Assembly (NCBI GenBank): GCA_903829945.1
Contig: CAIKRV010000059.1
Coordinates: 5,897-69,896, forward strand
Direction of reading: 5' to 3'
From: an uncultured bacterium
GTDB lineage: Bacteria > Bacteroidota > Bacteroidia > CAILMK01
Length of the DNA stretch: 64,000 nucleotides
Shown here: piece by piece, positions 46,931 through 64,000 of the stretch
How positions within the stretch are numbered: position 1 is the stretch's first letter
Layout: every line of letters starts with the position of its first letter
The notes under the pieces: generated by a model
Database searches by the model: none
Seen by the model: only the letters and a program-made list of their open reading frames with translations
Told to the model about the DNA's origin: nothing
Made by a program: the position numbers and the translations under genes

Positions 46931-46999
46931 AGATAATACCCTGCTATAAAGCGGCAACATTTGTGGCGAAAATATACTGTACATCCAAAATTTATAACG

Positions 47000-47986: not shown

Positions 47987-48003
47987 ACTAATTAGAAATT
48001 AAA

Positions 48004-49461
48004 ATGGAACAAAATACTATAAGCTCTAACATTTCTAATGGAACCATGAAAACCGGTTCGCATGAAGCAATGGTAAAAGCAAAAATTGAAACTATTCGTG
48101 AAGATAGTTTGCGCCCTACCAGAGTATGGGGTAAATCAACAAAATTATTTCTTGGATTCCTATTTTGCGTTGCAGGATGGGGCCTTTTTGCTTACGTATA
48201 TCAATGCATCCATGGATTGGGTGCAACAGCTATGCGTAATTATGTATCCTGGGGATTATATATATCCACCTTTGTATTCTTTATTGGTATAAGTCACTCA
48301 GGAACCTTGGTTTCTGCAATACTTAGAATTACCAAACAAGAATGGAGAAGACCAATTACTCGTTCTGCGGAATTGATGACTTTTGTGTCATTATTATTTG
48401 GTGGTATTATGCCAATATTAGATTTAGGACGTCCTGATCGTTTACAAAATTTAGTAATACATGGACGTTTACAATCACCACTAATTTGGGACGTTATTTG
48501 TATTTCCACCTATTTTGTTGGAAGTACCATGTTTTTGTATTTACCTATGATACCGGATATGGCACTCTGCAGAGACCGCTTACCTGAAGGTTCCTCAAAA
48601 TTTAAAAAATGGATATATACTAAATTGGCTATTGGATGGACAGGTACAACCAGTCAATGGCATAGGTTGGAAAAACTAATGAACATCATGACCATTATTA
48701 TTATTCCAATTGCAGTATCTGTGCATACGGTAGTAAGCTACATATTTGCAATGACCTTAAGACCGGGATGGGATAGCACCGTATTCGGTCCTTACTTCGT
48801 AGCCGGTGCTCTATATAGTGGTTCTGCAACGGTTATTATAGCCATGGCAGTATTCCGTAAGTTATACGGTTTAGAAAAATACATTACTCCAAGGCATTTT
48901 GATTTAATGGGAAAAATAGTTTTGGTATTAACCTTAGTCTATGCTTACCTCAACTTAAATGAATATTGGATTCCTGCCTATAAGATGACCACTTCTGAAG
49001 GACATTTATTAAAAGATTTATTTTACGGTACCTATTCCAAAGTATTCTGGACATTGCAATTTGGCACAGTGCTTCTTCCTATTGTTATCATGTCCATTCC
49101 TAAAGGAAGAAGAATAAAACCTTTGATCTTTGCATGTATAGTAATTGTAATTGGTGCTTGGATTAAACGATATATAATTGTTGTACCTACCTTATTGCAC
49201 CCATACATGCCCATTCAACAAGTTCCTACCGATTGGTCTTCCTATTTTCCTAATTGGGTAGAATGGTCAGTTACCTTTGGTGCGCTATCCGGCATCTTTA
49301 TCGTAATTACATTATTCTCCAAGTTATTCCCAATGATGGCAGTTTGGGAAGTGGAAGAAGGCGTAGAAATTGATGAAGACAAACTTCTGGCCATTGAAAT
49401 AAGAGATAAACGTGCCGCAGAAAAAAGAGGAGATATATCTGCTCCTATTGCAGCCAATTAA
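48004..49461 (+). CDS. NrfD/PsrC-family integral membrane quinone-interacting subunit, ActC-like
   Basis: WGLYISTFVFFIGISHSGTLVSAILR, RSAELMT, DLGRP, SPLIWDV, AVSVHTVVS, PGWDSTVFGPYFVAGALYSG; about 10 TM. Confidence 0.9.
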   Translation: MEQNTISSNISNGTMKTGSHEAMVKAKIETIREDSLRPTRVWGKSTKLFLGFLFCVAGWGLFAYVYQCIHGLGATAMRNYVSWGLYISTFVFFIGISHSGTLVSAILRITKQEWRRPITRSAELMTFVSLLFGGIMPILDLGRPDRLQNLVIHGRLQSPLIWDVICISTYFVGSTMFLYLPMIPDMALCRDRLPEGSSKFKKWIYTKLAIGWTGTTSQWHRLEKLMNIMTIIIIPIAVSVHTVVSYIFAMTLRPGWDSTVFGPYFVAGALYSGSATVIIAMAVFRKLYGLEKYITPRHFDLMGKIVLVLTLVYAYLNLNEYWIPAYKMTTSEGHLLKDLFYGTYSKVFWTLQFGTVLLPIVIMSIPKGRRIKPLIFACIVIVIGAWIKRYIIVVPTLLHPYMPIQQVPTDWSSYFPNWVEWSVTFGALSGIFIVITLFSKLFPMMAVWEVEEGVEIDEDKLLAIEIRDKRAAEKRGDISAPIAAN

Positions 49462-49472
49462 TAACATTAAAA

Positions 49473-50390
49473 ATGAAAATAATGAAAAAGTTTATAATAC
49501 TACCACGGAATATAACAACTTCTTTGTTTGCTCTTACTTTAATGCTTATTGGTTATGCTGTATCTGCACAAACAAGTGAAAAAATGAATCCAAGCATTCA
49601 GTTATCAGTTACTACCAAGGCTGATCATAGTATGAGTGCTTCCGTATTTGTAACGGCAAATAGTAAGGCTGTTAAAAAAAGACAACCGGCAGGAAATGCT
49701 AAAATTAACTTTTATACTACGGCTAATGGAACTGAAAAACTATTAGGAAGTACCGTTACTGAAGGTAATGGTAAAGCTGAAATTACTTTTAAAGAAGCAT
49801 TACTACTTGATACCGGTAATAACTATACTGTAATTGCTAAAATTGAAAATGACCCGATGTATGAAAATACTGATGAAGACGTTCATTTCAAGAAAGCAAA
49901 TTTGACCATTAATTTAAAACAACAAGATACTTTAAAGTTAGCTATTGCTAAAATTACGAGCACAGATAAAAACGGCAAAGAAATTCCGGTTAAAAATACT
50001 GAACTAAGTTTCTTTATACAACGCTTATTCGGTGCTATGCCAATTGTAGAGGATAACAAAGTAACTACCGATGAAAATGGAGAAGCCACCTTTACTTTTC
50101 CAAAATCAATAACCATTCCCGGCGATGAGAAAGGGAATTTTATAGTCGTTGCTAAACTTATCGACAATGAAACCTATGGGAATATAGAAACCCATGGAAA
50201 AATCAATTGGGGCGTACCCGTTCCATTTGAAAAGAATCCTTTTCCACGTGCATTGTGGGAAGCAAACGCTCCTCCTGCCCTAGTGATTACTATTTGTTTA
50301 ATATTTGGAAGTGTATGGTCTATTTACTTCTTTATGTTCATGCAATTAGGTAAGATTAAAAAGGACAAAGGAATGCCAAGAGTATCCTAA
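49473..50390 (+). CDS. Hypothetical exported beta-rich protein with C-terminal membrane anchor
   Basis: Signal peptide (..VSAQ), Ig-like repeats (TEGNGKA / TDENGEA), C-terminal TM followed by KIKK; no heme motif. Confidence 0.7.
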   Translation: MKIMKKFIILPRNITTSLFALTLMLIGYAVSAQTSEKMNPSIQLSVTTKADHSMSASVFVTANSKAVKKRQPAGNAKINFYTTANGTEKLLGSTVTEGNGKAEITFKEALLLDTGNNYTVIAKIENDPMYENTDEDVHFKKANLTINLKQQDTLKLAIAKITSTDKNGKEIPVKNTELSFFIQRLFGAMPIVEDNKVTTDENGEATFTFPKSITIPGDEKGNFIVVAKLIDNETYGNIETHGKINWGVPVPFEKNPFPRALWEANAPPALVITICLIFGSVWSIYFFMFMQLGKIKKDKGMPRVS

Positions 50391-50437
50391 TAAAACAAGA
50401 AAACAATTTTATATCAACAATTTAATTAATTATAGTC

Positions 50438-51745
50438 ATGGGAATGTTAAAAAACAAGTTTCTCCAAATTGCCTTGCTGGCAGGCATGATCTTCAGCTTT
50501 AGTTATTGTACAAAACACAATCAAGTATTAGATCTACAATCAACAGCCACCACTCCAAATGGAACATTATTAACCTCAATTTCCGGTAGCCCTAAAGTTT
50601 TAGGTTTAGGTGAAGGTACCTGGGATGGAACCATAGAATCCGTTTGGGCAAACGCTCCTAAGCTAACAGTTACGGCAACCGTACCTGACTTAGGGAATAA
50701 CACTTTTCCCGGTTTTGTAGGAAATTCAACCAATGTAACATTACGTTCATGCTATGATGCGCAAAACATCTACTTCTTAGTAGAATGGGATTGCGATAAA
50801 AACATGAATAGTGCTTGGTGGTATTTTGATCCTGCAACATCATTATGGAAACAAGAAACAGCAGCTCCTACTTTCGATGCAAACGGTATTATTACTCGGA
50901 ATGGATTTGTTCAAGATCAATTTGCATTTATTTGGAATATTAATAATTCCTGTGCGGATTTTGCATCTCAATCATGTTATGCCACTTGTCATGCTAATAC
51001 ACCTTCCATGACAGTTGATCCAAAAACAGGAAACATAATTACAACTCCTGTATATAGTGGAAGTATGCGTACCAGCGCACCGAATGAAAAATTAGATGTA
51101 TGGCGTTGTAGAATGATTACTGCTACCAATTACAATCAAATTAATGATTACTATATGGACTGGAATAATGGTACCGCCAATTCTAATGGATTCCATAAAG
51201 ATGATCAAGGAAGTCCACTGGCCAATCAATTTGGTGGTGGTACCAGTAACAAACAATCTTTAAAAATGAATAATGCTGCCAAAACTAAAGTTTCAGTACC
51301 TATTTGGTTTATTCCGGGCAAATCTTATTACAATGCTATTTTAGCCAGTGATACTACCGGTAATGCTAAATTTATTATCGCAGTAGATTCCAATGGAGTA
51401 TTACATTATGCCAATACCCGCGGTGGTGCAGAAGCAGGAACAATAGATCCAAATTCCGGAACTGATTATCAAAGAAACGGTGCCGGTGATGGACAATTCT
51501 GTATTCCTGGTTCAGTATTCGGACCATTTGTTGGTGGTATGGCTGATATCAGCGCTAATGCATATTATACAGGCAAAGGATGGAGATTACTTATTAAACG
51601 CACTCTTAAAACAAGCGATGTACTAGAACAAGATGTTGATTTTTCCAGCTTAAAAGATCAAGACTTTGGTATCGGATCATTCTTCAATACAGCAGATAAT
51701 CAACATGCCATTACTGCATATTTGAAATTGACGTTTAAAAAATAA
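50438..51745 (+). CDS. Lipoprotein with ethylbenzene-dehydrogenase-gamma-like (EB_dh/DOMON) domain and CX3CH motif
   Basis: Lipobox SFSYC; WANAPKLTV, YDAQNIYFLVEW, DQFAFIW, SCYATCH, EKLDVW, WRLLIKRTL. Confidence 0.72.
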   Translation: MGMLKNKFLQIALLAGMIFSFSYCTKHNQVLDLQSTATTPNGTLLTSISGSPKVLGLGEGTWDGTIESVWANAPKLTVTATVPDLGNNTFPGFVGNSTNVTLRSCYDAQNIYFLVEWDCDKNMNSAWWYFDPATSLWKQETAAPTFDANGIITRNGFVQDQFAFIWNINNSCADFASQSCYATCHANTPSMTVDPKTGNIITTPVYSGSMRTSAPNEKLDVWRCRMITATNYNQINDYYMDWNNGTANSNGFHKDDQGSPLANQFGGGTSNKQSLKMNNAAKTKVSVPIWFIPGKSYYNAILASDTTGNAKFIIAVDSNGVLHYANTRGGAEAGTIDPNSGTDYQRNGAGDGQFCIPGSVFGPFVGGMADISANAYYTGKGWRLLIKRTLKTSDVLEQDVDFSSLKDQDFGIGSFFNTADNQHAITAYLKLTFKK

Positions 51746-51813
51746 CAGACATAACTTTATTGAAAAGTATAGCATAAGTAATGCTACACATCAACAAATT
51801 AAAAATTAAGATT

Positions 51814-52215
51814 ATGTCAAGAAATAAATTTAAACTAATATTTGCCTTTATTGCCGCAAGTTTACTGATCATCACCGCATGTGTGAAAGATGTAACAGTA
51901 ACACTTACGGATAATAAAGAGGTAACCAAGAAGGTAAGTTTTTCAAAAGATTTGGTACCCTTATTTGTAGCCAATTGCGCGATCAGCGGATGCCATGTTG
52001 CGGAAAAACAAGTACCTGACTTGGAAAAAGATGTAGCGTACAAGTCGCTCATGAATTTAAACCTAATCGATGTAGGTACTCCTGAGAATAGCACATTGTA
52101 CAAAAGATTGACTGGTAAAATTACTCCTGCAATGCCAGCCGGTAAACCCACCAATCCATCCAATATCAATAATCTGGTGCTTGCATGGATTAAGCAAGGA
52201 GCAAATAACAATTAA
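51814..52215 (+). CDS. Small lipoprotein cytochrome c-like protein with CX4CH motif
   Basis: Lipobox ITAC; VSFSKDLVPLF..NCAISGCH; MP (possible axial Met); WIKQGA, resembling planctomycete-type cytochrome domains. ATG 51814 preferred. Confidence 0.72.
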   Translation: MSRNKFKLIFAFIAASLLIITACVKDVTVTLTDNKEVTKKVSFSKDLVPLFVANCAISGCHVAEKQVPDLEKDVAYKSLMNLNLIDVGTPENSTLYKRLTGKITPAMPAGKPTNPSNINNLVLAWIKQGANNN

Positions 52216-52226
52216 AAACAACAGTA

Positions 52227-53129
52227 ATGGAAAAACAGAAATATAATTTCAAAAAAATTGTCAAGGTATTAGCCCTGCTAATTATTGTCTTGAATGTAAA
52301 TTACGGATTTGCTCAAGATAGTTCCGCAGCAAAAAGTGCTAAACCAAAACCGGTTAAAGGAACCTTTGCCAGCTCCTTGCTTATCGACAATGAAACCGTA
52401 TATGTACCTAACCAAGGTTCAATGATTATGACCATCCAACATAGATTTGGAGATGCAAATCTTTACCAAGATATGTATGGATTATTCGCAATGTCCAGTA
52501 TGAGAATAGGTGTAGCTTATGTACCTATTAATAACCTTCAATTAGGTTTTGGACTGACCAGCTATAATAATACTTGGGATATAAATCTTAAATACGCCCT
52601 CATGCGCCAATCCGAAGAAGGTGGTTGGCCAATCAGTATTACTTATTATGGAAATTGGGCCATCGATACCAGAGATAAATCCAATTTCGTTTCCAACTAT
52701 GACAGGTTTACTTATTTTCATGAAATCATGTTTGCAAGAAAAGTAAACGATAATTTCTCTATACAAGTAGCTCCAACCTTAACTTATTTTAATAATGTAG
52801 TTGGATACATCAACTCTCAAGGAGATATTTTACCTACCATGAACAACCAACATTTTGCCTGTTCATTTATTGGCAGGTATAAATTGACTGACAAATTCGG
52901 TATTATAGCAGATTATGATCAACCGTTAACACAACATACTACCAATAATCCGCATCCAAACGTTGCAGGTGGTGTAGAATTTGAAACCTCCGGACACTCC
53001 TTCCAATTATTTTTCTCCAATTTTGGATTTTGTTTGCCTCAGTTAAACAATTTTCTAAATCAAAATGATTATACTAAGAAAGGAAATTATTTGTTCGGCT
53101 TTAACATAACCAGGAAGTTTAACTTATAA
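52227..53129 (+). CDS. DUF5777-like outer-membrane beta-barrel protein
   Basis: Signal peptide (..GFAQ), F.SS.LID.ETV, IQHRFG, EFETSGHSFQL.FSN, terminal FGFNITRKF. Confidence 0.8.
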   Translation: MEKQKYNFKKIVKVLALLIIVLNVNYGFAQDSSAAKSAKPKPVKGTFASSLLIDNETVYVPNQGSMIMTIQHRFGDANLYQDMYGLFAMSSMRIGVAYVPINNLQLGFGLTSYNNTWDINLKYALMRQSEEGGWPISITYYGNWAIDTRDKSNFVSNYDRFTYFHEIMFARKVNDNFSIQVAPTLTYFNNVVGYINSQGDILPTMNNQHFACSFIGRYKLTDKFGIIADYDQPLTQHTTNNPHPNVAGGVEFETSGHSFQLFFSNFGFCLPQLNNFLNQNDYTKKGNYLFGFNITRKFNL

Positions 53130-53697: not shown

Positions 53698-56600
53698 CTA
53701 AAATTCTTTTTTGAGTCTCTTATCTGTTTTTCGATATGCCCATGCAAATATTAATGGGAATACCCATAAGGAAAATAACATAGCACATAAAATACCTCCT
53801 ATAACTACCCTAGCAAGCGGTCTGGAGCTTTCTGAGCCAATACCGTGGGACATGGCTGCTGGCAACAAACCAACTGCTGCCATTAAGGCTGTCATTAATA
53901 CGGGACGTATTCTTTCATTTACACCTAATTTCAAGGCCATATAAAGTGAATCTTGTTGACCTTTAATTTTATTGAGGTTTTCCTTAAAAATAGTAATGAG
54001 GATAATCCCATCTTGAATACATATACCAAATAAGCATATAAATCCGATACCCGCAGAAATACTAAAATTAGTACCGGTAATATGTAAGGCTAAAATACCA
54101 CCCACTATGGCAAAAGGAACATTTAAAAAGACCAATCCGGCATCTTTAAAATTCCCAAACATACTTAAGAGTAATATAAATATAAGCAATAAACTAATCG
54201 GTACCACTTGGGCCAATCTTCCTTGAGCTCTTTGTTGATTTTCAAAATCCCCCTGCCAAGCCATGTTATAACCTCTTTTTAAGGTTACTTTATCGCCCAC
54301 CTTCTTTTGGGCTTCTGCAATAGTACTGCCCATATCCCTTCCTCTGACAGAGAATTTCAGCGCAGAGTATCTGGAATTATCATCTCTAAAAATTAAACAA
54401 GGACCGGTTTTCTTAGATATTTCAGCAATAGACTTAATCGGAACTTTTGAACCATTTTGAGTAGGCACCAACAAATTTCCGATATCATTAGGATTGCTTC
54501 TGAATTCCTCCGGCAACCTTACACGAATATCAAATGTTTTTATGCCTTCATATAAGGTTGAGGCTGCTTGTCCGCCAATAGCCATGCCTAATACTGAATT
54601 AGCATCAGCTGTGGCAACGCCGTACAATGCCATTTTTTGTTGATCGAGATTAACATCAATTTCCGGCTGCCCTATATTATGAATAACGCCTAAATCTTCT
54701 ATCCCTTTTACATCTTTTAAAATATTATAAACATCTTTAATCTTGCTCTCCATATAGTTTAAAGAATCCCCATAAACTTTTACGCATATAGAACCCTTAA
54801 CACCGGATACGGCCTCTTCTACATTATCCATTATCGGCTGAGAAAAGTTAAGATTAACGCCGGGAATCGTTTCCAACTTGGCATTCATTTTTTCAATAAG
54901 CTCATCCTTGGTCAGCTTGGATTTCCATTCTTCCGAAGGATACAATAATACATCAAACTCATTATTATAAAAGCCTGCTACATCAGTACCATCATCCGGT
55001 CTGCCAGTTTGCGAAACGACTTTTTTAACTTCAGGGAAAGTCATTACTATTTTCCGTACTTGCCGTGCTACCTCTACCCCTTTAGAAAGTGATGCACTAT
55101 AAGGCAATTGCACACGAAGCCATATGGCACCTTCATTTAATTCAGGCAAGAATTCCGAACCCAAAAATCTAAAGGAGTATAATCCAACCACCATAATAAC
55201 TAAAGCAATACTAATGACTAATTTTTTACGCTTAAAGGAAGCAATAAAACCGCCGAGCATTATTTTATTTAAAAAATGGACAAACGGATTGTGTCTTTCT
55301 CTTACATTCTTATTTAATAAAAGCGATATGAGTACAGGAACTATGGTCAGCGTAGCAATTAAGGAACCTAATAAAGCAAATCCAAGCGTAAATGCCAATG
55401 GAGAGAACATTTTTCCTTCCACTTTCTGAAAAGAGAAAATAGGAATAAGCGCAATAATGATAATTACCTTAGTAAAGAAAATTGCCTTACCGCGTTGTGC
55501 ACCAATTTTTCTTATCCAACCACCTTTAGCTCGCCTGTTAAATACCTCCTTGCCCATCGTTTCCGACTGGTGCGCCAGAAAGGCGAAGGCACCCTCCACC
55601 ATTACGACGGCTCCATCAATGATAATACCAAAATCTACTGCCCCCAGGGAAAGTAAGTTGGCAGACATCCCCATTAAATTTAAACATATAAAGGAAAACA
55701 GCAAGGCTATGGGGATAATAAGGGCTACGATAAGGGTGGTACGCCAATCAAATAAAAATATTGATATAAGTACAATAACCAATAAAATTCCTTCAACCAA
55801 ATTATGCATAATCGTATGCGTGGCGTATGAAATCAAATCAGCACGATCGTAAAATGGAATTATTTTGGTGTCTGCAGGTAGTACATCGCGATTAAGTTTC
55901 GCAATTTCTTTTTTAACCCCGTCCACTACCTCTGAAGGATTTTCACCTTTACGCATCACCACAATACATTCTACTACATCATCCTCATCAGTCACTTCTC
56001 TATTGCCTTTAGCATTAATTAAGGCATCACCTCTTCCAATCCAACCCAAACGAGGAATATTGGATATTTCAACCGTGGCTACATCCCTGACTAATAATGG
56101 CACCCCATTATTATTTTGGATAATAACATTTTTGATTTCATTGATGTCATTAAGCAGCCCAATACCTCGAACCACAAATGCCTCATCATTTTCAACAATC
56201 ATATCACCACCAATATTAATATTGGTTTTTTGAACCGCGGTAAATACATCTAAAGGAGTAATCCCTAATGAGGTTAGTTTTTCAGGATTAACTTTTATTT
56301 CATACGCCTTTGATTTTCCTCCAAAACTGGTGACATCAGCAATACCGGGTACTGCTTTCAATCGTCTTTCAATCACCCAATCTTGCATGGTTTTAAGCTC
56401 CCTGGCATCACGGAAGGAACTTCTTAAAGTATAACGGAAAATTTCACCGGTGGGCCCAATGGGCGGTTGAACGGAAGGATTTACATTCGGAGGCAAGTTG
56501 GCATTGGAAAGTAAATTCATTACTTGTTGCCTCGCCTGCGGATCCTTTACATTATCTTCAAATAATATTTTAATAAAAGATAAACCAAATATACTGGTGG

Positions 56601-56859
56601 AACGTAAACTGGTTTTGTGCTGCACCGGATTCATTGCTATTTCAATAGGAATAGTAACGAACTTTTCTACTTCTTCAGCACTTCTGCCAGGCCATTGTGT
56701 AATTACATCTATTTCTGTATTGGTAACATCGGGAAATGCTTCGATAGACATTCCTCTAAAAATAATGACGCCGGATACGATAAGTAATGCGGCAGCAAAA
56801 ATTATAAAGTACTTATTCTTTATCGAGAAACCGACTACCTTTTTTAAGAATTTATTCAT
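53698..56859 (-). CDS. CusA/CzcA-family heavy-metal efflux RND permease
   Basis: EAFPDVT, GRSAEEVE, SLGAVDFGIIIDGAVVMVE, FLPELNEG, RIRPVLMTA, PLARVVIGG. Confidence 0.94.
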   Translation of the reverse strand: MNKFLKKVVGFSIKNKYFIIFAAALLIVSGVIIFRGMSIEAFPDVTNTEIDVITQWPGRSAEEVEKFVTIPIEIAMNPVQHKTSLRSTSIFGLSFIKILFEDNVKDPQARQQVMNLLSNANLPPNVNPSVQPPIGPTGEIFRYTLRSSFRDARELKTMQDWVIERRLKAVPGIADVTSFGGKSKAYEIKVNPEKLTSLGITPLDVFTAVQKTNINIGGDMIVENDEAFVVRGIGLLNDINEIKNVIIQNNNGVPLLVRDVATVEISNIPRLGWIGRGDALINAKGNREVTDEDDVVECIVVMRKGENPSEVVDGVKKEIAKLNRDVLPADTKIIPFYDRADLISYATHTIMHNLVEGILLVIVLISIFLFDWRTTLIVALIIPIALLFSFICLNLMGMSANLLSLGAVDFGIIIDGAVVMVEGAFAFLAHQSETMGKEVFNRRAKGGWIRKIGAQRGKAIFFTKVIIIIALIPIFSFQKVEGKMFSPLAFTLGFALLGSLIATLTIVPVLISLLLNKNVRERHNPFVHFLNKIMLGGFIASFKRKKLVISIALVIMVVGLYSFRFLGSEFLPELNEGAIWLRVQLPYSASLSKGVEVARQVRKIVMTFPEVKKVVSQTGRPDDGTDVAGFYNNEFDVLLYPSEEWKSKLTKDELIEKMNAKLETIPGVNLNFSQPIMDNVEEAVSGVKGSICVKVYGDSLNYMESKIKDVYNILKDVKGIEDLGVIHNIGQPEIDVNLDQQKMALYGVATADANSVLGMAIGGQAASTLYEGIKTFDIRVRLPEEFRSNPNDIGNLLVPTQNGSKVPIKSIAEISKKTGPCLIFRDDNSRYSALKFSVRGRDMGSTIAEAQKKVGDKVTLKRGYNMAWQGDFENQQRAQGRLAQVVPISLLLIFILLLSMFGNFKDAGLVFLNVPFAIVGGILALHITGTNFSISAGIGFICLFGICIQDGIILITIFKENLNKIKGQQDSLYMALKLGVNERIRPVLMTALMAAVGLLPAAMSHGIGSESSRPLARVVIGGILCAMLFSLWVFPLIFAWAYRKTDKRLKKEF

Positions 56860-56878
56860 TTCTGATTACTTTAAAAAA

Positions 56879-58003
56879 TTAATTATTCAGTTCTCCATAA
56901 ATCTGCAAAGCTTGTGAGGCAATAATTCTATCTCCAATCTTCAAACCTGATTTTAAATATACTTTATTTCCAAATGTATTCAGTACTTCTACAGGTGAAA
57001 TGGATGCATTTCCTTTGCCTTCGTATTTTACCACATAATATTGGCTATGGTCATACACCAAGGCTTTATCAGGAACACACAAAGTTTGTTTATGTTCCGG
57101 ATCGGAAACCGTTACCCTGGCAAACATCTCAGGTTTTAAAATATAATCAGGATTTGGCAATACGATTCTTACCTTAATAACCTTACTGGTTGGATCAAGT
57201 ACGTTAAGTATTTTGTCTATTTTTCCGGTAAACACTCTATCAGGAGCCGATAATGTTCTTACTTCTACATTATCCCCAACATGTACTTGATCTATATTCG
57301 CTTCATATACATTCGCCTGTACCCAAACGTCTTTTAAATCAGAGATAGTAAATAAATTGGTAGTATTATCAGCTCTGATAAATGAATTATTGGTAATATT
57401 TTTTTGAACGATAAATCCGCTAATTGGCGATTTTATAATAAAATCTCCCTGAACATTATTACCATTAATTTTTAAAATCTTTTTTACCATTTCTAATTGT
57501 GCTACTGCTTGGTCGTAATTGGTTTGCGCAGTATTCACATCCAATATGGAAGCTAATCCACTTTTGTACAAATCCTGCATGGCCTCCAATTGTTTTTTAG
57601 TAGTTTTAACATTAGTTTCTGCTACTACTAAATTATTGGCATAACCAGCCATTTCACTACTTTTTACTACTGCCAAAGTTTGTCCCGCAGATACGTAATC
57701 GCCCAATTGCACTTTTATATCTTGGATATTACCACTCACCAGTGAATAAATATTCACTTGCTTATCTTGGTTAAAATCAACAATAGCAGTGAGGGTGATG
57801 GCATTCAATAAAGGACAAGTATTGACGGTATCAATTTTCAAGGTTTTAAGTAATGAATCAGGTATGGTGTACTTTACTTTTTCCTCTTGTTTTTTTTCAG
57901 TTTCACTGCAACCTTGTGCAAGGAAGGCAAGGATACTTAATAAAACAATTACGCTAAATCTGTTTGTCCTTTTCACTTTATATGTATTTATTTTTAAATT
58001 CAT
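56879..58003 (-). CDS. RND efflux periplasmic adaptor (CzcB-like lipoprotein)
   Basis: Lipobox AQGC; V.LGD.V..GQ.LA, IKSPISG, ISDLKDVWV.ANVYE, LKPEMFA. Confidence 0.92.
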   Translation of the reverse strand: MNLKINTYKVKRTNRFSVIVLLSILAFLAQGCSETEKKQEEKVKYTIPDSLLKTLKIDTVNTCPLLNAITLTAIVDFNQDKQVNIYSLVSGNIQDIKVQLGDYVSAGQTLAVVKSSEMAGYANNLVVAETNVKTTKKQLEAMQDLYKSGLASILDVNTAQTNYDQAVAQLEMVKKILKINGNNVQGDFIIKSPISGFIVQKNITNNSFIRADNTTNLFTISDLKDVWVQANVYEANIDQVHVGDNVEVRTLSAPDRVFTGKIDKILNVLDPTSKVIKVRIVLPNPDYILKPEMFARVTVSDPEHKQTLCVPDKALVYDHSQYYVVKYEGKGNASISPVEVLNTFGNKVYLKSGLKIGDRIIASQALQIYGELNN

Positions 58004-58015
58004 GATTAGATGAGA

Positions 58016-59323
58016 TTAGTTGTTAAAAAAACTTGTCCCTGTTAAATAATTTAGATTTTCAAGTGCATTTACGCGATTAAATAAAATCGTATTGAGTTGC
58101 ACAATATTTTGCTTATAAGAATCATAGAAGTTCAAGAAATTAAGTAAATTCACATTTCTCTTCATATAATTCTCTGCCATGGATTTTGCCAAATCATTAA
58201 ATCGACCGGCAAAACTTGGATCAATTTCTTTATACAATTTATCCGCATCAATTGCTTTTTGAAAACCTCTGGTAACTTGCTCCTCCAAAGTTTTATGCGT
58301 TAAATCTAATTGCGTTTTATTATAATCAACCATAATACGAGAATAACGTATATTGCCCTGGTTACGATTGAAAATCGGAATATCAATAGCAATGCCGATG
58401 GAATTAAAGTTTGGAATATAACTTCCTTGCCTATCGTATCCTAAGGCAGCATTAATATCGGGCACCGCTATCGCCTTTTGCAAAGAATAATTAGCCTGAC
58501 TTAATTCGAGGTTATCTTTTGCAATTCGCATATCCCCTCTATTAATATTTGCTGAATCAATAAGCAATTGTAAAGAAACCGATAATGGATTAATGGCTTG
58601 TACCTTTTGGGTATCCACTACAGGTTTAATATAGGTAGTTGGCTGTAATTGCAATAATAATCTTAATTGGCTTTCCTGATCATTCAAGCTATCAATCAAG
58701 GTTTGGTATTCATTCATTAAGGAATATAGTTGTGCTTGTACACGAACTACATCCGCCTCAGCAACGTAACCTTTACCTTCTTGCTGTTTGTAAGCGGCTA
58801 CTATGGTTTTAAGACTACCAATTTCCTGATTATAGACCTTCTCGGTTTCACGCAAGTAATAAATATTAAAAAATGAAGTGCGTAAAGCTAATTTTAAGGA
58901 AAGTAAAGTTGCATATAAGTTATCCTCAGATAATTTATAATTCACCTTAGCAATATGAACCTGCTTACTGATTTTACCTGCCAATTGAATTAATTGGGAA
59001 ATTTGCCCGGCCTCTTCACCATTCACGGCATCCGTTTGTAACCATTTCTTCGTTTGAGAATTGTATAAACCCTGAGCAATATTTAAATTCGGATTCGGCC
59101 AAAGTTTGGCCTGAAGAATTAATGCTTCAGTTGCACTTACATTGTATTTTAAAGAAAGCAATTGTAAATTCTTCTTTAGAAAAATATCTTCAGCCTCCTT
59201 CAAACTAATGCTTGTACTATCCTTGATGAGCGCATCATTAAGCTTTACTTGCCCAAATAATTGGGGCCCGAGTAACAAGGCAAGTATAATTGGAATAACG
59301 CTTTTTATATTTCTAATTTTCAT
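58016..59323 (-). CDS. TolC-family outer-membrane channel (CzcC-like)
   Basis: ISLKEAE, QAKLWPNP, AVPDI, IDIPIFNRNQGNI; first gene of the CBA operon. ATG 59323 preferred. Confidence 0.9.
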   Translation of the reverse strand: MKIRNIKSVIPIILALLLGPQLFGQVKLNDALIKDSTSISLKEAEDIFLKKNLQLLSLKYNVSATEALILQAKLWPNPNLNIAQGLYNSQTKKWLQTDAVNGEEAGQISQLIQLAGKISKQVHIAKVNYKLSEDNLYATLLSLKLALRTSFFNIYYLRETEKVYNQEIGSLKTIVAAYKQQEGKGYVAEADVVRVQAQLYSLMNEYQTLIDSLNDQESQLRLLLQLQPTTYIKPVVDTQKVQAINPLSVSLQLLIDSANINRGDMRIAKDNLELSQANYSLQKAIAVPDINAALGYDRQGSYIPNFNSIGIAIDIPIFNRNQGNIRYSRIMVDYNKTQLDLTHKTLEEQVTRGFQKAIDADKLYKEIDPSFAGRFNDLAKSMAENYMKRNVNLLNFLNFYDSYKQNIVQLNTILFNRVNALENLNYLTGTSFFNN

Positions 59324-59511
59324 TCTTGGGATTATAATTTTATAGATTTCAAGTTTGAGCAAACCTTTTCAACTTTTAGCCGGCACATTTGATTATTGCA
59401 TTTAATTGGAAACCAATTCAAACAATAAATTATACCGCCACTACAGTGTAAAAAGTAGCATTCTATCAAATATCGTGCAAAAGAATCTTTGCATAATATC
59501 TTAATACTACC

Positions 59512-59901
59512 TTAACAAGAAACTTGGGGTGGAGGACTCAGCGTTTTCAAAATAATAGATTCGGGAAAAATTGGCCTAATTTCTGAAAATTGTTCCTTCA
59601 CCACACGAAAAGAGATACTTGGAAGGAGCTTAAAAAAAGAAAAGAGGTTAAATCCTTTGGTAATTTTTACAACTATACCACCATCATAATTGTCTCTTTC
59701 CTCGTGTTCAGGAAATGCATTCGTATATCCTAAAATATTTTCGGCCACTAATTCAGTAATACTTTCAACATCATTAATCGCTAAATTTTCCGGCACATCA
59801 TCAGAATAAGTATCCGGGGCATCAATACTCAAATTGAGTATATGCAGCGCCATACACAGACAAAGAACACGATGTAAATATTTTGGCCGGAACAATTTCA
59901 T
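59512..59901 (-). CDS. Small hypothetical protein leading the czc-like operon
   Basis: 129 aa, N-terminal hydrophobic segment, NLSIDAPD, acidic ESITELVAE..EHEERD, C-terminal SPPP. Confidence 0.7.
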   Translation of the reverse strand: MKLFRPKYLHRVLCLCMALHILNLSIDAPDTYSDDVPENLAINDVESITELVAENILGYTNAFPEHEERDNYDGGIVVKITKGFNLFSFFKLLPSISFRVVKEQFSEIRPIFPESIILKTLSPPPQVSC

Positions 59902-59909
59902 TGAAAGTG

Positions 59910-59917
59910 CAAAATTA
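59910..59917 (-). promoter_or_regulatory. -7 element (TAATTTTG) for the czc leader ORF
   Basis: Exact match 8 nt upstream of ATG 59901. Confidence 0.65.
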
Positions 59918-60082
59918 GTACTTTTTTAATGATTTTTGGATAAAACTAATCAAAATCCATGCCTAAATACTAGCTTTTGAGTAAAAACTTATTAAAATGA
60001 TCAAATGAAGTCAATACATCACAATTGAATTTCTGTGCTTAGTCAAACATTTAAGCATAAAATATATTATGCCTAAATGAGC

Positions 60083-61012
60083 CTATGATTTAAAGTCTTC
60101 AATCCAACCAAATCTTTCATTTATAATATTGATTTTTTCCTTTTCCAAGTAAGTCAGAAAGCTTTCTGCCACCCTGCTAAATTTTTTATTTTTAAGCCAA
60201 ATCAGTTGCCAAGTCGATTTAATAGGGAATCCCTTCACAGATATAATTTGTAACTCTCGATTGTTTAATTCATTTTTTATACCAATTATTGGCATAATGG
60301 AACAGCCTATCCCTGCTATAACTGCTTGTTTTACAGCTTCATTTGTAGCTAGTTCCATCTTTTTCCTAACGGGAATCTGATGCTCATTAAAGTATTTTTC
60401 CATCACAAATCTGGTCCCGGAACCGCTTTCCCGATATATCATCGGCAATTCCTTCAAAATTTCACTGTCGTATATTTTATTTCGAAATTTTCTTTCTGTA
60501 TTGGTAACTACATAAAGTTTATTTGTCATCAATTCCAAGGATGAAACTTGCAGATGATCCGGCAAGACCGTAACCAATGAAAAATCTACTTCATTTCTCT
60601 CCAAGCTTTCTAATACCCTGCTTTTATTGGTGACATCCATTTGCAATTCCACACCAATATTATGCTTTAAAAAGTTCGTCAAAAAATAGGGCATAACATA
60701 CTTCCCGGTGGATACGACCGATATATTTAAACGTCCCGTCAGGAGCCCCTGATAGGCCATCGTTTTTTCCTTAATGGCATCCACCTCATTTAAAATCTTT
60801 TCGGCTGCTATGGCTACTTCTTTACCAAACTCTGTAATGTACCAGCGCCTGCCAACGATTTCTGAAAGGGGTACTTCAAACTGATCTTGAAAATTTTTTA
60901 ATTGAATGGAAACGGCGGGTTGGGTTAAATGTAATTGTTCGGCAGCTTTTGTAATACTTTGTAATTGAGATACTTTAAGAAATACTTGCAACTGATGTAA
61001 AGTATAGTTCAT
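60083..61012 (-). CDS. LysR-type regulator, CbbR/CmpR-like
   Basis: TLHQLQVF...SITKAAEQLHLTQPAVSIQLK HTH; VVSTGKYVMP, RESGSGTR, NEAVKQAVIAG, as in the CbbR subfamily. Confidence 0.9.
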   Translation of the reverse strand: MNYTLHQLQVFLKVSQLQSITKAAEQLHLTQPAVSIQLKNFQDQFEVPLSEIVGRRWYITEFGKEVAIAAEKILNEVDAIKEKTMAYQGLLTGRLNISVVSTGKYVMPYFLTNFLKHNIGVELQMDVTNKSRVLESLERNEVDFSLVTVLPDHLQVSSLELMTNKLYVVTNTERKFRNKIYDSEILKELPMIYRESGSGTRFVMEKYFNEHQIPVRKKMELATNEAVKQAVIAGIGCSIMPIIGIKNELNNRELQIISVKGFPIKSTWQLIWLKNKKFSRVAESFLTYLEKEKINIINERFGWIEDFKS

Positions 61013-61036
61013 AAATTTTATTTATGTTAATCATTG

Positions 61037-61044
61037 CAAATATA
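61037..61044 (-). promoter_or_regulatory. -7 element (TATATTTG) for the LysR gene
   Basis: Exact match 24 nt upstream of ATG 61012. Confidence 0.55.
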
Positions 61045-61104
61045 AATAAAATAATATGATAAAAGAATTGGAGATTTGCCCCATCAATAAAAAAAAGAGC
61101 GCTT

Positions 61105-61389
61105 ATGAAAGAAAAAGACAAATTCAAATTAATTGATGGCGTATTTAAAAAAGAGGAGGCCCAAACCATTTTAGGAAGCCTGTTTGACTACAAAATAAAT
61201 TTTCATAACAAGGAAATTTTAAGTACTCAGGAAAGAAATGGCAGTCCGCATCCGCATTCGGAAAGCAGGATACAAGAACTAAAAATGTCTAAAGAAAATC
61301 TGAAACAATTTCTCGCCAAACTGGAAGAAGACACCCAACTTAAAATTGAAAGTAACATCGAAATAAAAATAATTAAAACAAAACCATGA
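61105..61389 (+). CDS. Small soluble hypothetical protein (94 aa)
   Basis: FKLIDGVF..EEAQ.IL...KINFH..HSESRIQEL; ATGA overlap with sbtA. Confidence 0.7.
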   Translation: MKEKDKFKLIDGVFKKEEAQTILGSLFDYKINFHNKEILSTQERNGSPHPHSESRIQELKMSKENLKQFLAKLEEDTQLKIESNIEIKIIKTKP

Positions 61390-62351
61390 ACATTGATTTT
61401 TTACTCAACAATATTTCCAACCCGGCATTTTTATTTTTTATCTTAGGCATACTTGCCGTAAAAATTAAAAGTGATTTATATATTCCGGAAAATTCATCCA
61501 AATTCATATCTATTTATTTACTTTTATCCATAGGATTTAAAGGTGGACAAGAATTATCCCATGAAAACTTTTCTCCGGAAATCATTTGGTCAGCCATAGC
61601 CGGCATAGCGATAGCCGTCTTAATTCCTATTTATACTTTTTTTATTCTTAAACGAAAATTTGATACCCAAGATGCGGGTGCCATAGCTGCTTCCTACGGA
61701 TCAGTGAGTGCGGTTACATTTGTTACTGCTTGCGCATATTTAGAAACGCAAGGCTTAAAACCGAGCGGTCATATGGTAGCCATCATGGCACTCATGGAAT
61801 CACCTGCCATCATAGTGGGATTATTATTAATTAATTTTTTTAATAATCAATCACATGAAAAAAAGCCCATGCGCGAAGTTTTAATTCATTCCTTAACCAA
61901 TGGAAGTATTATATTAATATTTGGAAGTCTAATAATTGGATACTTTGCCAATGAAAGAGATGCCTTGGGAATTAAGCCGTTTACCAATGATATTTTTAAG
62001 GGATTCCTTGCAGTATTTTTATTGGACATGGGCATCACTTGCGGTAAAAGGTTAAATTCAACTTTAAAAAACGGGTGGTTCCCCTTGGCGTTTGGAATTT
62101 TAATTCCACTTATTAATGGTTGCATCATCTCTTTGTTGAGTGCATTAATTACGACAAATACTTCCAACCGATTTATTTTTGCTATACTGGCGGCCAGTGC
62201 ATCTTATATAGCTGTACCGGCGGCCATGAAAATTGCTAATACCAAAGCCAATCCCGGACTATATCTAAGCATGGCATTAGCAATTACCTTCCCTTTAAAT
62301 ATTACCTTGGGAATGCCTATTTATTATGACTTATCACACTTTAATTGGTAA
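61386..62351 (+). CDS. sbtA: SbtA-family sodium-dependent bicarbonate transporter (DUF897)
   Basis: KSDLYIP..SKFISIYLLLSIGFKGG, AIAASYGSVSAVTF, MALMESPAI, ASASYIAVPAAM, ITFPLNI..GMP.YY. Confidence 0.9.
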   Translation: MNIDFLLNNISNPAFLFFILGILAVKIKSDLYIPENSSKFISIYLLLSIGFKGGQELSHENFSPEIIWSAIAGIAIAVLIPIYTFFILKRKFDTQDAGAIAASYGSVSAVTFVTACAYLETQGLKPSGHMVAIMALMESPAIIVGLLLINFFNNQSHEKKPMREVLIHSLTNGSIILIFGSLIIGYFANERDALGIKPFTNDIFKGFLAVFLLDMGITCGKRLNSTLKNGWFPLAFGILIPLINGCIISLLSALITTNTSNRFIFAILAASASYIAVPAAMKIANTKANPGLYLSMALAITFPLNITLGMPIYYDLSHFNW

Positions 62352-62374
62352 TCAACTAAACATATAAATAAAAA

Positions 62375-63823
62375 ATGAAAAAAATTGCAGTAGCTAAGGG
62401 AGATGGCATCGGCCCTGAAATCATGGATGCCGTGCTTGAAATTATGCATCATGCCGGCGCGCAACTCGAAGTGCAAATGGTAAACATGGGAAAACAGTGG
62501 TATGAAAAAGGGTTCTCCAGCGGCATGACACCGGAAAGCAAAGAAATGGTAGAATCTTACGGTATCCTCTTTAAAGGTCCTATGGAAACGCCTAAAGGCG
62601 GCGGAATGAAAAGTATAAATGTTACCGCACGCAAAGTTTGGAGTACCTATGCCAATAAACGTATATTTAAAAGTTTACCCGGTGTTAAAACTATTTTTTC
62701 TGAAGCAGGTATTCCTATAGATATTACAATTGTAAGAGAAAATATTGAGGACACTTACGGAGGAATTGAACATATGCTCACGCATGATGTTGCTTTATGC
62801 AGGCGATTTATTACCAGACCGGGTTCCATGCAAGTTCACCGATATACATTTGAAATGGCGAGAAAAAAGAATGCTAAAAAAGTTACTTGCGGTCATAAAG
62901 CCAATATTATGAAAATAACAGACGGTTTATTTTTAGAATGTTTTTATGAAGTTGCCAAAGAGTATCCGGAAATAAAAGCTGATGATGTCATCGTTGATGA
63001 TTTAGCCATGAAACTGGTAGTGAAACCCAATGAATTTGACATTATAGTATTGCCAAATTTGCAAGGCGATATAATATCCGATTTATGTGCAGGATTAGTA
63101 GGTGGCTTAGGATTTGCTCCTTCTGCCAATATAGGAGATCAAATTTCCATTTTTGAAGCGGTACACGGAACGGCTCCGGATATTACGGGACAAAACAAAG
63201 CCAATCCTACCTCCTTATTATTGAGCGGAGCCATGCTATTACGACATATTGGTCAAAATGCCGCAGCGGAAAATATAGAAAATGCTTTAATTAAAACTTT
63301 GCAAGACGGTATCCATACACCGGATTTAAATAAAAATGAAGGCCTGGTAGTCGGCACAAAAGAATTTGCAGCAGCAATAATACAACGATTATCGGATTCA
63401 AAACCATATGCAAACAATGAAACCCATAGTATTCCTTCCCATGCCAAACCTACGGAAAATTTAATGATGGAAACTAAGTTTAATGGTACTGCTGAAATCG
63501 TAGGCGTAGATTTATTTATCGAATCCAATAAAATACCTGTACAGGTAGGACAAATATTAGAAGATGCAATAGATCATCAACTATGGAAACTGGTAACCAT
63601 TAGCAATCGTGGTACCCAAGTGTACCCCACAGGTTCCATATATACGGAATGCATCAATCAATATAGGGTACGTATTGAATGTGCAACAAAGCATGGCACA
63701 TGCAGTCAAAATGAAATACTGGAATTGGTAACAAAACTCAGCCCTTTATTTAAACTATGCTCTATAGAAATGCTGATGTCCTATAATGGAAAGAAAGCTT
63801 ATTCCTTAGCACAAGGTCAATAA
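62375..63823 (+). CDS. icd: Isocitrate dehydrogenase (long form), copy 2
   Basis: Same motifs as copy 1: GDGIGPEI, KSINVTARK, RENIEDTY, HKANIMK, NLQGDIISD, FEAVHGTAPDITG, ISNRG, YSLAQGQ. Confidence 0.9.
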   Translation: MKKIAVAKGDGIGPEIMDAVLEIMHHAGAQLEVQMVNMGKQWYEKGFSSGMTPESKEMVESYGILFKGPMETPKGGGMKSINVTARKVWSTYANKRIFKSLPGVKTIFSEAGIPIDITIVRENIEDTYGGIEHMLTHDVALCRRFITRPGSMQVHRYTFEMARKKNAKKVTCGHKANIMKITDGLFLECFYEVAKEYPEIKADDVIVDDLAMKLVVKPNEFDIIVLPNLQGDIISDLCAGLVGGLGFAPSANIGDQISIFEAVHGTAPDITGQNKANPTSLLLSGAMLLRHIGQNAAAENIENALIKTLQDGIHTPDLNKNEGLVVGTKEFAAAIIQRLSDSKPYANNETHSIPSHAKPTENLMMETKFNGTAEIVGVDLFIESNKIPVQVGQILEDAIDHQLWKLVTISNRGTQVYPTGSIYTECINQYRVRIECATKHGTCSQNEILELVTKLSPLFKLCSIEMLMSYNGKKAYSLAQGQ

Positions 63824-63836
63824 ATAAATATTTTCT

Positions 63837-63998
63837 TTAGATATGCTTTGGAATAAGATGCTTTGTAAAGTATTCTTTAATAAAATGCTGTTGTTGTACT
63901 TCAGTCATTTTATCAGCCGGTTTAACTTCAATATTAATCTTAGAAAAAAGATGATCATCCTTCAAAAGATTATACAATTCATGCTTAGCATCGGTAGG
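63837..63998 (-). CDS. 3' end of an unidentified CDS entering from beyond the window
   Basis: Open frame of 53 codons (..PTDAKHELYNLLKDDHLFSKINIE..KHLIPKHI*) ending TAA at 63837, convergent with icd copy 2. Confidence 0.45.
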   Translation of the reverse strand, partial: PTDAKHELYNLLKDDHLFSKINIEVKPADKMTEVQQQHFIKEYFTKHLIPKHI

Positions 63999-64000
63999 AC

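Follow-up and report, generated by a model that had tools for sequence, protein, structure and literature searches.

Why should a LysR-type regulator, a SbtA-family permease and a second isocitrate dehydrogenase (IDH) stand together in a bacterium with no RuBisCO gene in view? The question is raised by a locus at positions 60083-63823 of a 64,000-nucleotide stretch of DNA from an uncultured member of the Bacteroidota (GTDB lineage Bacteroidia, CAILMK01; assembly GCA_903829945.1, contig CAIKRV010000059.1, positions 5,897 to 69,896). The whole of this stretch is referred to below as the window, and coordinates are counted from its first letter. Based on comparison with related loci, we consider it reasonably probable that the locus is a member of a Bacteroidota-wide, LysR-controlled regulon for the supply of inorganic carbon (bicarbonate) in heterotrophs. 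The features on which the argument depends are the following.

60083-61012, minus strand: LysR-type regulator gene, 309 aa, with Pfam HTH_1 and LysR_substrate domains, divergent from orf94
61021-61059, plus strand: operator-like footprint conserved across loci, presumed LysR binding site
61075-61078, plus strand: TTTG, candidate -7-type promoter element at a fixed spacing from the footprint
61105-61389, plus strand: orf94, 94 aa, first gene of the operon, unannotated family
61386-62351, plus strand: Sbt_1 permease gene (sbtA), 321 aa, SbtA family (TC 2.A.83; PF05982)
62375-63823, plus strand: icd2 (IDH2), 482 aa, homodimeric-type isocitrate dehydrogenase with the bacterial C-terminal domain (PF00180 and PF18324)
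17462-18919, minus strand: icd1 (IDH1), housekeeping-like paralog of icd2, the comparator outside the module

Organization of the locus

The stop codon of orf94 and the start codon of sbtA share the sequence ATGA at 61386-61389. The gap between sbtA and icd2 is 23 nt and contains no terminator-like site, while the divergent intergenic region between the LysR gene and orf94 measures 92 bp (61013-61104). Coordinates, strands, the overlap, the short gap and the lack of a terminator are all as an earlier sequence-only reading of the window had described them, and its second icd copy is indeed present (17462-18919, minus strand; of the same type and 53% identical to icd2). Terminator-like plus-strand matches within sbtA have stems of 5-6 bp and were judged to be due to chance. 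No RNA family was found in 59400-64000 (Rfam).

A Pfam scan of the 48 window open reading frames (ORFs) of at least 150 aa gave no RuBisCO, phosphoribulokinase, carboxysome protein or carbonic anhydrase (CA), which bears out the earlier remarks that RuBisCO is missing from the window and that no CA is adjacent. Nor was any marker of the reductive tricarboxylic acid (rTCA) cycle seen in the 64 kb. The genes of the window look like an ordinary heterotrophic Bacteroidota set, including a protein with a type IX secretion system (T9SS) signal, TonB, an RND efflux system, PntAB and housekeeping genes.

A recurrent module in Bacteroidota

For a permease-anchored survey, 80 Bacteroidota loci were fetched and their ORFs called and clustered; partners were counted where 4.5 kb or more of sequence lies upstream of Sbt_1, as it does in 61 loci. 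At these 61 loci the permease gene is accompanied by an ortholog of the LysR gene (49), an orf94 homolog (37), DUF6671 (33), an IDH (26), Sua5/TsaC (26), dihydroorotase (9) or a beta-CA (8), and 57 loci have a partner of some kind. The commonest layout is a LysR gene divergent from IDH, an optional 80-aa gene (C6), an orf94 homolog, DUF6671, Sua5/TsaC, an optional dihydroorotase, and Sbt_1. Genes from LysR to Sbt_1 are all co-directional in 48 of 51 loci, with gaps mostly below 100 nt. A beta-CA gene directly adjoins Sbt_1 in 11 of the 80 loci. The cluster Sua5 passes the cutoff of TIGR00057 and the cluster dihydroorotase that of PRK09236. Linkage of Sbt_1, IDH and LysR is seen in seven or more gene orders, and loci with TetR in place of LysR still pair Sbt_1 with IDH; the LysR gene and its operator are found without IDH in 23 of the 49 loci. 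The pairing of sbtA with icd is therefore not unique to this genome. It recurs across Bacteroidota, with a conserved operator, and the window locus, with orf94, Sbt_1 and IDH, represents the widespread module in a compact and rearranged form. Cultured carriers of the module include Flavobacterium segetis DSM 19741, F. weaverense DSM 19727, F. omnivorum, Emticicia aquatica, Aquimarina celericrescens and Flavipsychrobacter stenotrophus.

The loci whose IDH belongs with IDH2 (clade A, defined below) illustrate the variety of arrangements. A slash marks a divergent junction and < a gene in reverse orientation.

P0123 (77% identical to IDH2, the closest; same sample as the window): Sbt_1-IDH, IDH directly after Sbt_1
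P0124: LysR / IDH, CA-like C15, Sbt_1
P0126: LysR / small ORF, IDH
P0151: SulP, beta-CA, <TetR, Sbt_1-IDH
P0158: SulP and beta-CA nearby; IDH-DUF6671, then Sbt_1
P0148: <TetR / IDH, Sbt_1, SulP-CA fusion
P0137: <TetR / Sbt_1-IDH
P0134: SulP-CA fusion; <TetR / IDH-DUF6671
P0176: IDH-DUF6671
P0190 (Flavipsychrobacter stenotrophus): LysR / DabB-DabA ... IDH, PurK, PurE, orf94-like, DUF6671, Sua5, dihydroorotase, Sbt_1

In these relatives the partners of known function are beta-CA, SulP-CA fusions (BicA-like), DabAB, PurK/PurE, Sua5/TsaC and dihydroorotase. Sua5/TsaC makes threonylcarbamoyl-AMP from threonine, ATP and bicarbonate, and dihydroorotase acts downstream of the bicarbonate-dependent carbamoyl phosphate step. 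DabAB is an inorganic-carbon pump (bioRxiv 10.1101/476713), PurK uses bicarbonate, and heterotrophs at air-level CO2 need either a carbonic anhydrase or a bicarbonate importer (bioRxiv 10.64898/2026.09.08.750065). No theme other than inorganic carbon links these neighbours. The proposal of the sequence-only reading, an inorganic-carbon module in a heterotroph, is supported by the recurrent synteny, the conserved operator and the neighbouring beta-CA, SulP-CA, DabAB, PurK and Sua5 genes.

Several further genes recur in the clusters. DUF6671 proteins, of about 280-300 aa with Cys-rich motifs at the C-terminus, directly follow IDH even where Sbt_1 is not nearby, the gene sometimes overlapping the IDH 3' end (L169:7618-8466, L170:7412-8323, L166:7472-8377); no relative was found in the PDB and no paper in a literature search. 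C15, an unannotated family of about 165 aa, lies directly upstream of Sbt_1 in five loci (L002:5601-6011, L044:124-621, L058:5511-5999, L075:5511-6023, L081:7795-8307); it may be a degenerate carbonic-anhydrase-like partner, the L081 copy having a weak Pfam match to Pro_CA. C14, 103 aa with a weak match to CutA1 (PII-like fold), occurs inside four clusters (L002:1248-1559, L005:3124-3435, L012:3955-4266, L038:7389-7700) and may be what comes closest to SbtB in these clusters. Flavipsychrobacter stenotrophus (L167; PPSL01000009.1, 438-13452) has the module in its largest form; there the orf94-like ORF has 87 aa, the LysR comes from another family and no copy of the conserved operator is present.

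The LysR regulator and its candidate effector sites

Both domains of the regulator score above their Pfam cutoffs (PF00126, 58.4 bits; PF03466, 119.6 bits). The sequence-only reading had placed it in the CbbR subfamily, and CbbR (NF045990) is the top NCBIfam name; the score, however, is 176.6 bits against an equivalog cutoff of 450, and the closest relatives of solved structure are NdhR/CcmR (PDB: 5Y2V; 185 bits) and CmpR (PDB: 5Z49; 100 bits), followed by the next LysR-type transcriptional regulator (LTTR) at 79 bits. With no RuBisCO or phosphoribulokinase among the 48 window ORFs or in the related loci, it is not a CbbR by function. Its orthologs at the 49 LysR loci are 55-72% identical and divergent to the module.

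NdhR binds 2-oxoglutarate (2-OG) at an inter-domain site formed by K104, Y105, S224 and N225, CmpR binds ribulose 1,5-bisphosphate (RuBP) at the equivalent K106, S226 and N227, and NdhR has in addition an intra-domain pocket for 2-phosphoglycolate comprising T101, T102, H130, N164, R195, T201 and R267 (PMC13249358). The inter-domain site corresponds to K104, Y105, T223 and N224 in the window LysR, and at least 50 of 53 orthologs retain the K/Y/S(T)/N quartet. The intra-domain pocket is identical at four of seven positions; T101 is conservatively replaced with Ser, and H130 with Lys and R267 with Ser or Thr family-wide. As judged from its nearest characterized relatives and the kept inter-domain effector site, the regulator would belong to the NdhR/CcmR-CmpR subgroup of LTTRs. 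By analogy with NdhR, 2-OG is its probable ligand, while 2-phosphoglycolate and RuBP are unlikely signals without RuBisCO.

The operator-like footprint and candidate promoter

A footprint of about 45 bp, with the consensus TTTATg-N6-AT.aCAAA.ATAAATAAAAAT.tATgAa-N11-A-NN-TTTGc, recurs in the same register in 39 of 43 intergenic regions divergent from LysR, irrespective of which gene comes first on the plus strand (IDH, orf94, Sbt_1, beta-CA, C15 or DUF6671). It is also present in the clade-A loci L081-L083. In the window it occurs once, where none is expected by chance, starting 8 nt from the LysR start codon; there are no further copies, and none near icd1. The footprint is presumably the LysR binding site, and such phylogenetic conservation is strong evidence that LysR would control the divergent operon. 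Autoregulation is likely as well, because the footprint overlaps the upstream region of the LysR gene itself.

Downstream of the footprint, the column block of highest information is a TTTG at fixed spacing across loci, located in the window at 61075-61078, 27 nt upstream of the orf94 ATG. The promoter consensus of Bacteroidota is TAnnTTTG, and the conserved TTTG fits its -7 element, for which it is a candidate. A sigma-70 promoter scan, the consensus of which is unsuited to Bacteroidota, returned 13 matches versus 17.2 in shuffled sequences. Of the published CmpR motif, TTA-N7/8-TAA, one TTA-N7-TAA is present in the window; its flanking triplets are unconserved across loci, and such matches are expected in AT-rich DNA.

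The Sbt_1 permease

The permease matches PF05982 with 377.7 bits (cutoff 27) over residues 13-316 of 321. It has thousands of relatives about 70% identical, the named ones being Bacteroidota proteins annotated as 'sodium-dependent bicarbonate transport family permease', and members of the SbtA family outside the cyanobacteria are known to act on HCO3- (PMC10880623). When aligned with Synechocystis SbtA (PDB: 7CYE), the cytoplasmic loop of about 50 aa (S166-W212) is missing, residues 160-168 of the permease aligning to 166-217 of the 7CYE chain. The crossover motifs of the Na+ site, F110-G111-A112 together with A320 and S322, correspond to Y104-G105-S106 and to A269 and S271, a weak test in view of the main-chain coordination. 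Among the docked HCO3- ligands, S114 and S324 are retained as S108 and S273, and Y140 and S327 are changed to M134 and A276. No PII-like sbtB gene is present in the operon. The protein is a probable bicarbonate importer, its substrate being assigned mainly from genomic context.

One could instead suppose that Sbt_1 takes up an organic acid, e.g., isocitrate, citrate or another hydroxy-acid, which the IDH would oxidize and LysR would sense as CcpC senses citrate. The permease and dehydrogenase genes do adjoin, with gaps of 9-23 nt, only two of the four ligands are kept, and none of 20 homologs from the Bacteroidota subfamily departs from M134 or A276. Sbt_1 belongs, moreover, to the CPA/AT superfamily, which handles many kinds of charged substrate (PMC8396727), and the permease has a weak Pfam match to Asp-Al_Ex. 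This explanation would nonetheless leave unaccounted for the repeated beta-CA (beside Sbt_1 in the 11 loci noted above), SulP-CA, DabAB, PurK and Sua5 neighbours, as well as the 23 LysR loci without IDH; and since the IDH keeps the strict isocitrate-specific Ser/Asn pair, only isocitrate would fit. We regard it as quite unlikely.

That Sbt_1 should chiefly carry anions with Na+ so as to buffer the cytoplasm, for example in alkaline or saline adaptation, appears highly improbable. Carriers of the SbtA type do depend on Na+ coupling, high pH goes with an enrichment of bicarbonate transport genes (PMC10880623), and both CA and bicarbonate serve pH control too. Such a function in Na+ and pH homeostasis would not, however, explain why PurK, Sua5, dihydroorotase and IDH are encoded in the operons, or why the nearest relatives of the regulator are sensors of carbon status with a conserved 2-OG site.

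The isocitrate dehydrogenases

IDH2 scores 522.8 bits with PRK09222, above the cutoff of 509, and 439.4 bits with TIGR02924, below the cutoff of 561.35; its nearest structure is the Thermus IDH (PDB: 2D1C; E value 5.5e-115). IDH1, flanked by genes for a SpoU methylase and an inositol monophosphatase, reaches only 491.6 bits with PRK09222 despite having all the IDH catalytic residues. The residues that bind isocitrate and Mg or take part in catalysis (S113, N115, R119, R129, R153, Y160, K230, D307 and D311 in E. coli) are invariant in IDH1, IDH2 and three clades of IDH. Clade A includes IDH2 and its best matches (63-77% identical), clade B consists of IDH1 and IDHs from metagenome contigs, and clade C comprises the canonical cluster enzymes, which are 65-93% identical to one another and 38-46% to the window IDHs and score as canonical PRK09222/ICDH_alpha (762.6 bits). 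Bacteroidota IDHs of clade B seem to be poorly covered by the curated PRK09222 model. Assignment of the cluster IDH as a homoisocitrate, isopropylmalate or tartrate dehydrogenase was ruled out by the invariant Ser/Asn isocitrate pair and catalytic residues. Orthology of IDH2 with the IDH of the canonical Flavobacterium-type cluster was also rejected, the two being in different clades and 41-46% identical.

At the positions equivalent to 344, 345 and 351 of the E. coli enzyme, IDH1, IDH2 and all members of clades A and B carry Asp-Ile-Ala (Asp269-Ile270 and Ala276 in IDH2), the combination that reportedly converted the E. coli enzyme to the use of NAD+ in engineering work. The Thermus enzyme has Lys-Tyr, of the NADP type, a basic/aromatic pair that binds the 2'-phosphate. 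IDH2, which lacks this pair, is thus predicted to depend on NAD+, against what its NCBIfam name says; for clades A and B the label 'NADP-dependent' is probably wrong, a likely annotation error that is corrected here. In clade C (cluster IDHs of L003-L073), Arg-Arg occupies the cofactor positions in 17 of 26 sequences and Asp-Ile in five (e.g., L005:1681-3105 versus L009:2279-3709), which looks like a switch of cofactor specificity inside one tight clade. PntA and PntB, the subunits of NAD(P) transhydrogenase, are encoded at 39193-40332 and 40716-42122 of the window, a plausible source of NADPH provided both IDHs are NAD-dependent as predicted.

The Asp-Ile-Ala signature bears directly on the first of two mechanisms offered by the sequence-only reading, in which imported bicarbonate is converted to CO2 and fixed by reversed IDH2 (2-oxoglutarate + CO2 + NAD(P)H to isocitrate) for anaplerotic or assimilatory purposes. 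The reaction is reversible in principle, the adjacency of IDH to an inorganic-carbon importer is conserved, and the Arg-Arg of the 17 clade-C enzymes could mean use of NADP(H). All of clade A, however, carries the NAD+-specific signature; the substrate of IDH is CO2 rather than bicarbonate, with CA absent from the window; the PurK and Sua5 of the relatives use bicarbonate for biosynthesis, which suggests scarcity and not bulk fixation; and the window shows no rTCA marker. Reductive carboxylation is accordingly disfavoured, and we consider it very unlikely. The oxidative direction is favoured for IDH2 because of its NAD-type signature.

Comparison of the clades indicates that IDH2 is specifically associated with the module. 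Within 6 kb, none of 11 clade-B genes is accompanied by Sbt_1, an orthologous LysR, carbonic anhydrase, DUF6671 or Sua5, and one of these controls (P0210) adjoins the gene for a 2-oxoacid dehydrogenase E2. All 11 sampled clade-A loci have a module partner, compared with none of the 11 in clade B (one-sided Fisher test, p = 1.4e-6), and Sbt_1 itself lies within 6 kb in 8 of 11 (window counted) versus 0 of 11 (p = 5e-4), although the samples in both tests are not phylogenetically independent. The window genome carries one IDH from each of these clades, IDH1 from B and IDH2 from A.

It might still be argued that there is no functional coupling, icd2 being a second IDH of the tricarboxylic acid cycle with its own promoter, and the synteny an inherited gene order of Bacteroidota. 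A TAnnTTTG at 62174-62181, inside sbtA and about 195 nt upstream of icd2, is a possible internal icd2 promoter; the canonical clade-C IDH could be the only IDH of the genomes concerned; and the cluster Sua5 and PyrC, which pass equivalog cutoffs, may be housekeeping copies. That promoter motif occurs at chance level (42 per 64-kb strand), however, and a single ancestral order does not explain a linkage that survives at least seven gene orders, two regulator types and two IDH clades. Sister clade B, furthermore, is without such neighbours, and both clades are represented in the window genome. In our view the absence of coupling is unlikely.

The orf94 family

No Pfam or NCBIfam family scores above cutoff with the product of orf94, and a match to Nif11 (21.9 bits, below cutoff, 20 residues) was dismissed as noise. 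A word-indexed search returned only the protein itself; this was a limit of sensitivity and the ORF is not spurious, as homologs were found by tblastn and HMMER. They are present in 44 of the 80 related loci, together with C6, a shorter paralog of about 80 aa within the same clusters, and an exhaustive HMMER search of a library of 1.84 billion proteins gave 682 representative clusters. Thus orf94 is a genuine gene and founds a family that has no annotation, characterized by the motif LI[DE]G.F..-.A-..L-..KI.[FY]H ... R[IV]..L.

An AlphaFold2 (AF2) model based on a 61-sequence alignment has a predicted local distance difference test (pLDDT) score of 93 and consists of a beta-hairpin, a pair of long antiparallel helices and a strand at the C-terminus, a fold that is not PII-like; the single-sequence AlphaFold model (pLDDT 48.6) was unusable. 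No confident structural relative was found with Foldseek in the PDB (best 4DCI; E value 6e-3, TM 0.35), and the family profile matched no PDB sequence below E = 0.6. In 11 loci the gene immediately before Sbt_1 is an orf94 homolog, at a distance of -23 to 144 nt. The protein is small and soluble, translationally coupled to the permease gene through the ATGA overlap, and its role as a partner or regulator of the permease is a guess. In some family members of 173-188 aa (P0246, P0255, P0267 and P0278) there are two matched stretches, the orf94 fold being fused in tandem, a hint that orf94 acts as a dimer.

Proposed role of the module

We propose that the NdhR/CmpR-like LysR would bind the operator next to its own start codon, and that the divergent promoter would drive orf94, the permease gene and icd2 as a single transcript, co-transcription being assumed. 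When CO2 and HCO3- are scarce, the permease would import bicarbonate with Na+, and this import would feed carboxylations required by all heterotrophs: anaplerosis, acetyl-CoA carboxylase, carbamoyl phosphate synthesis, PurK and TsaC/Sua5. Relatives encode several of these enzymes within the operon, and the larger forms of the module would thereby combine import with additional or co-regulated consumers of bicarbonate and with systems that hydrate CO2. IDH2 would be a dedicated paralog acting oxidatively (isocitrate + NAD+ to 2-oxoglutarate + CO2 + NADH), most likely restoring 2-OG, the pool of which depends on bicarbonate-dependent anaplerosis, and releasing CO2 in the cell. With 2-OG as the ligand of LysR, a feedback loop would be closed. 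The second mechanism of the sequence-only reading, co-induction of IDH and SbtA to hold CO2 and 2-OG under CO2 limitation, fits better than the first because LysR keeps the 2-OG site of NdhR. A wider and more speculative version, which we think possible though doubtful as a whole, is that the carbon-status logic of the cyanobacterial CO2-concentrating mechanism holds here too: an NdhR-like LysR reading 2-OG sets inorganic-carbon uptake in RuBisCO-less heterotrophic Bacteroidota as a phylum-wide 'bicarbonate-starvation regulon', in which the dedicated IDH sets the 2-OG signal, as a metabolic feedback built into the operon, and orf94 and DUF6671 are new components of inorganic-carbon homeostasis. 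In such a scheme orf94 is a possible non-PII functional counterpart of SbtB.

Several points weigh against a bicarbonate-supply regulon. The support is wholly genomic, with the inducing signal and the role of orf94 inferred. CA, DAB, Sua5, PurK and DUF6671 are all missing from the 64-kb window beyond the locus genes, and no other module partner was found elsewhere in it. Synechocystis SbtA is no more than a distant relative of the permease (80 bits, both halves aligned), in which half of the docked HCO3- ligands are replaced. The regulator is far below the CbbR equivalog cutoff, its intra-domain pocket departs from that of NdhR at two of seven positions, and the NdhR motif ATAG-N8-CTAT does not occur in 61013-61104. 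The chance-level TAnnTTTG inside sbtA could be a promoter from which icd2 is expressed separately. Sua5, PyrC and PurK might be the sole copies in the relatives, so that part of the synteny would be housekeeping. Finally, an extra IDH alone relieves no bicarbonate shortage, which leaves a weak rationale for its inclusion; the role we infer for IDH2 is the weakest part of the argument.

Other genes of the window

Upstream of the locus, 53698-59901 encodes a CzcCBA-like RND efflux system (ACR_tran, membrane-fusion protein and OEP), and a 129-aa ORF of no family (59512-59901, minus strand) sits between the efflux genes and the LysR gene. A respiratory-looking cluster at 46961-53129 contains genes for a 4Fe-4S dicluster protein, an NrfD-type membrane subunit, an Ig-like protein, an EB_dh (ethylbenzene-dehydrogenase-like haem) protein, DUF5777 and a cytochrome c.

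Comparison with known systems

LysR-controlled uptake of inorganic carbon is already known in cyanobacteria and chemoautotrophs, as are the supply of bicarbonate in heterotrophs and SbtA homologs in Flavobacteriia. In the genome paper of Nonlabens dokdonensis an SbtA homolog is listed and presumed to import bicarbonate for anaplerosis (PMC3595038). Such Flavobacteriia genome papers list SbtA and SulP genes only, and not a regulator, operator, IDH clade, orf94, DUF6671 or bicarbonate-enzyme neighbours. Our literature searches returned no description of the Bacteroidota module, its operator or the two module-linked IDH clades, nor of the link to PurK, Sua5 and dihydroorotase, the orf94 family or a function for DUF6671. 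The module recurring across Bacteroidota is thus apparently undescribed.

Heterotrophs need bicarbonate to make fatty acids, purines, pyrimidines, arginine and the tRNA nucleoside t6A and for anaplerotic carboxylations, and its supply in non-model phyla is little known. If the reading is correct, the Bacteroidota, which in freshwater, soil and sea rank among the main degraders of organic matter, would own a dedicated and transcriptionally regulated inorganic-carbon module, with an operator recognisable enough to make the regulon predictable genome by genome, a dedicated IDH clade and two uncharacterized families. The CO2 uptake of Flavobacteriia, dark or anaplerotic, would gain a concrete candidate explanation, and DUF6671 and the orf94 family would gain testable functions; the regulatory logic of NdhR and CmpR would not be tied to autotrophy.

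As for the enzyme, the Thermus thermophilus IDH (PDB: 2D1C), like PRK09222/ICDH_alpha members in general, shares with IDH2 the Iso_dh core, PF18324 and identical catalytic residues. The two differ in the cofactor positions (Asp-Ile-Ala in IDH2, Lys-Tyr in Thermus), and the IDH2 clade is marked by its inorganic-carbon context.

The SbtA-family transporters of chemoautotrophic Proteobacteria (PMC10880623) are likewise non-cyanobacterial members acting on bicarbonate. They serve CO2 concentration for carboxysomes and RuBisCO, whereas neither the window nor the related loci that were inspected contain an autotrophy gene.

A functional parallel is the DAB/MpsAB system, together with CA, of the heterotrophs Staphylococcus aureus and Bacillus subtilis, which provides bicarbonate for biosynthetic carboxylations at air-level CO2 (bioRxiv 10.1101/476713, 10.64898/2026.09.08.750065). 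DabAB is physically linked to the module in Flavipsychrobacter. The Bacteroidota module differs in that the transporter is Sbt_1, in having a dedicated LysR with a phylum-wide operator, and in the co-encoded IDH and bicarbonate-consuming enzymes.

Also among the closest known systems is the cyanobacterial control of sbtA-sbtB, bicA, ndhF3 and cmpABCD by NdhR (CcmR) and CmpR (PMC8042125, PMC13249358). There are several differences. The host is here a heterotroph without RuBisCO in the window; PII-like sbtB is lacking, its adjacent position being occupied by an unrelated 94-aa protein; the permease is without the SbtB-related cytoplasmic loop; the operator differs from ATAG-N8-CTAT; and the operon includes IDH, to which relatives add PurK, Sua5, PyrC and DUF6671. 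What the two systems have in common is a regulator of the same LTTR subgroup, divergent to a SbtA-family gene and retaining the residues of the 2-OG/RuBP interface, by which carbon status would be coupled to uptake.

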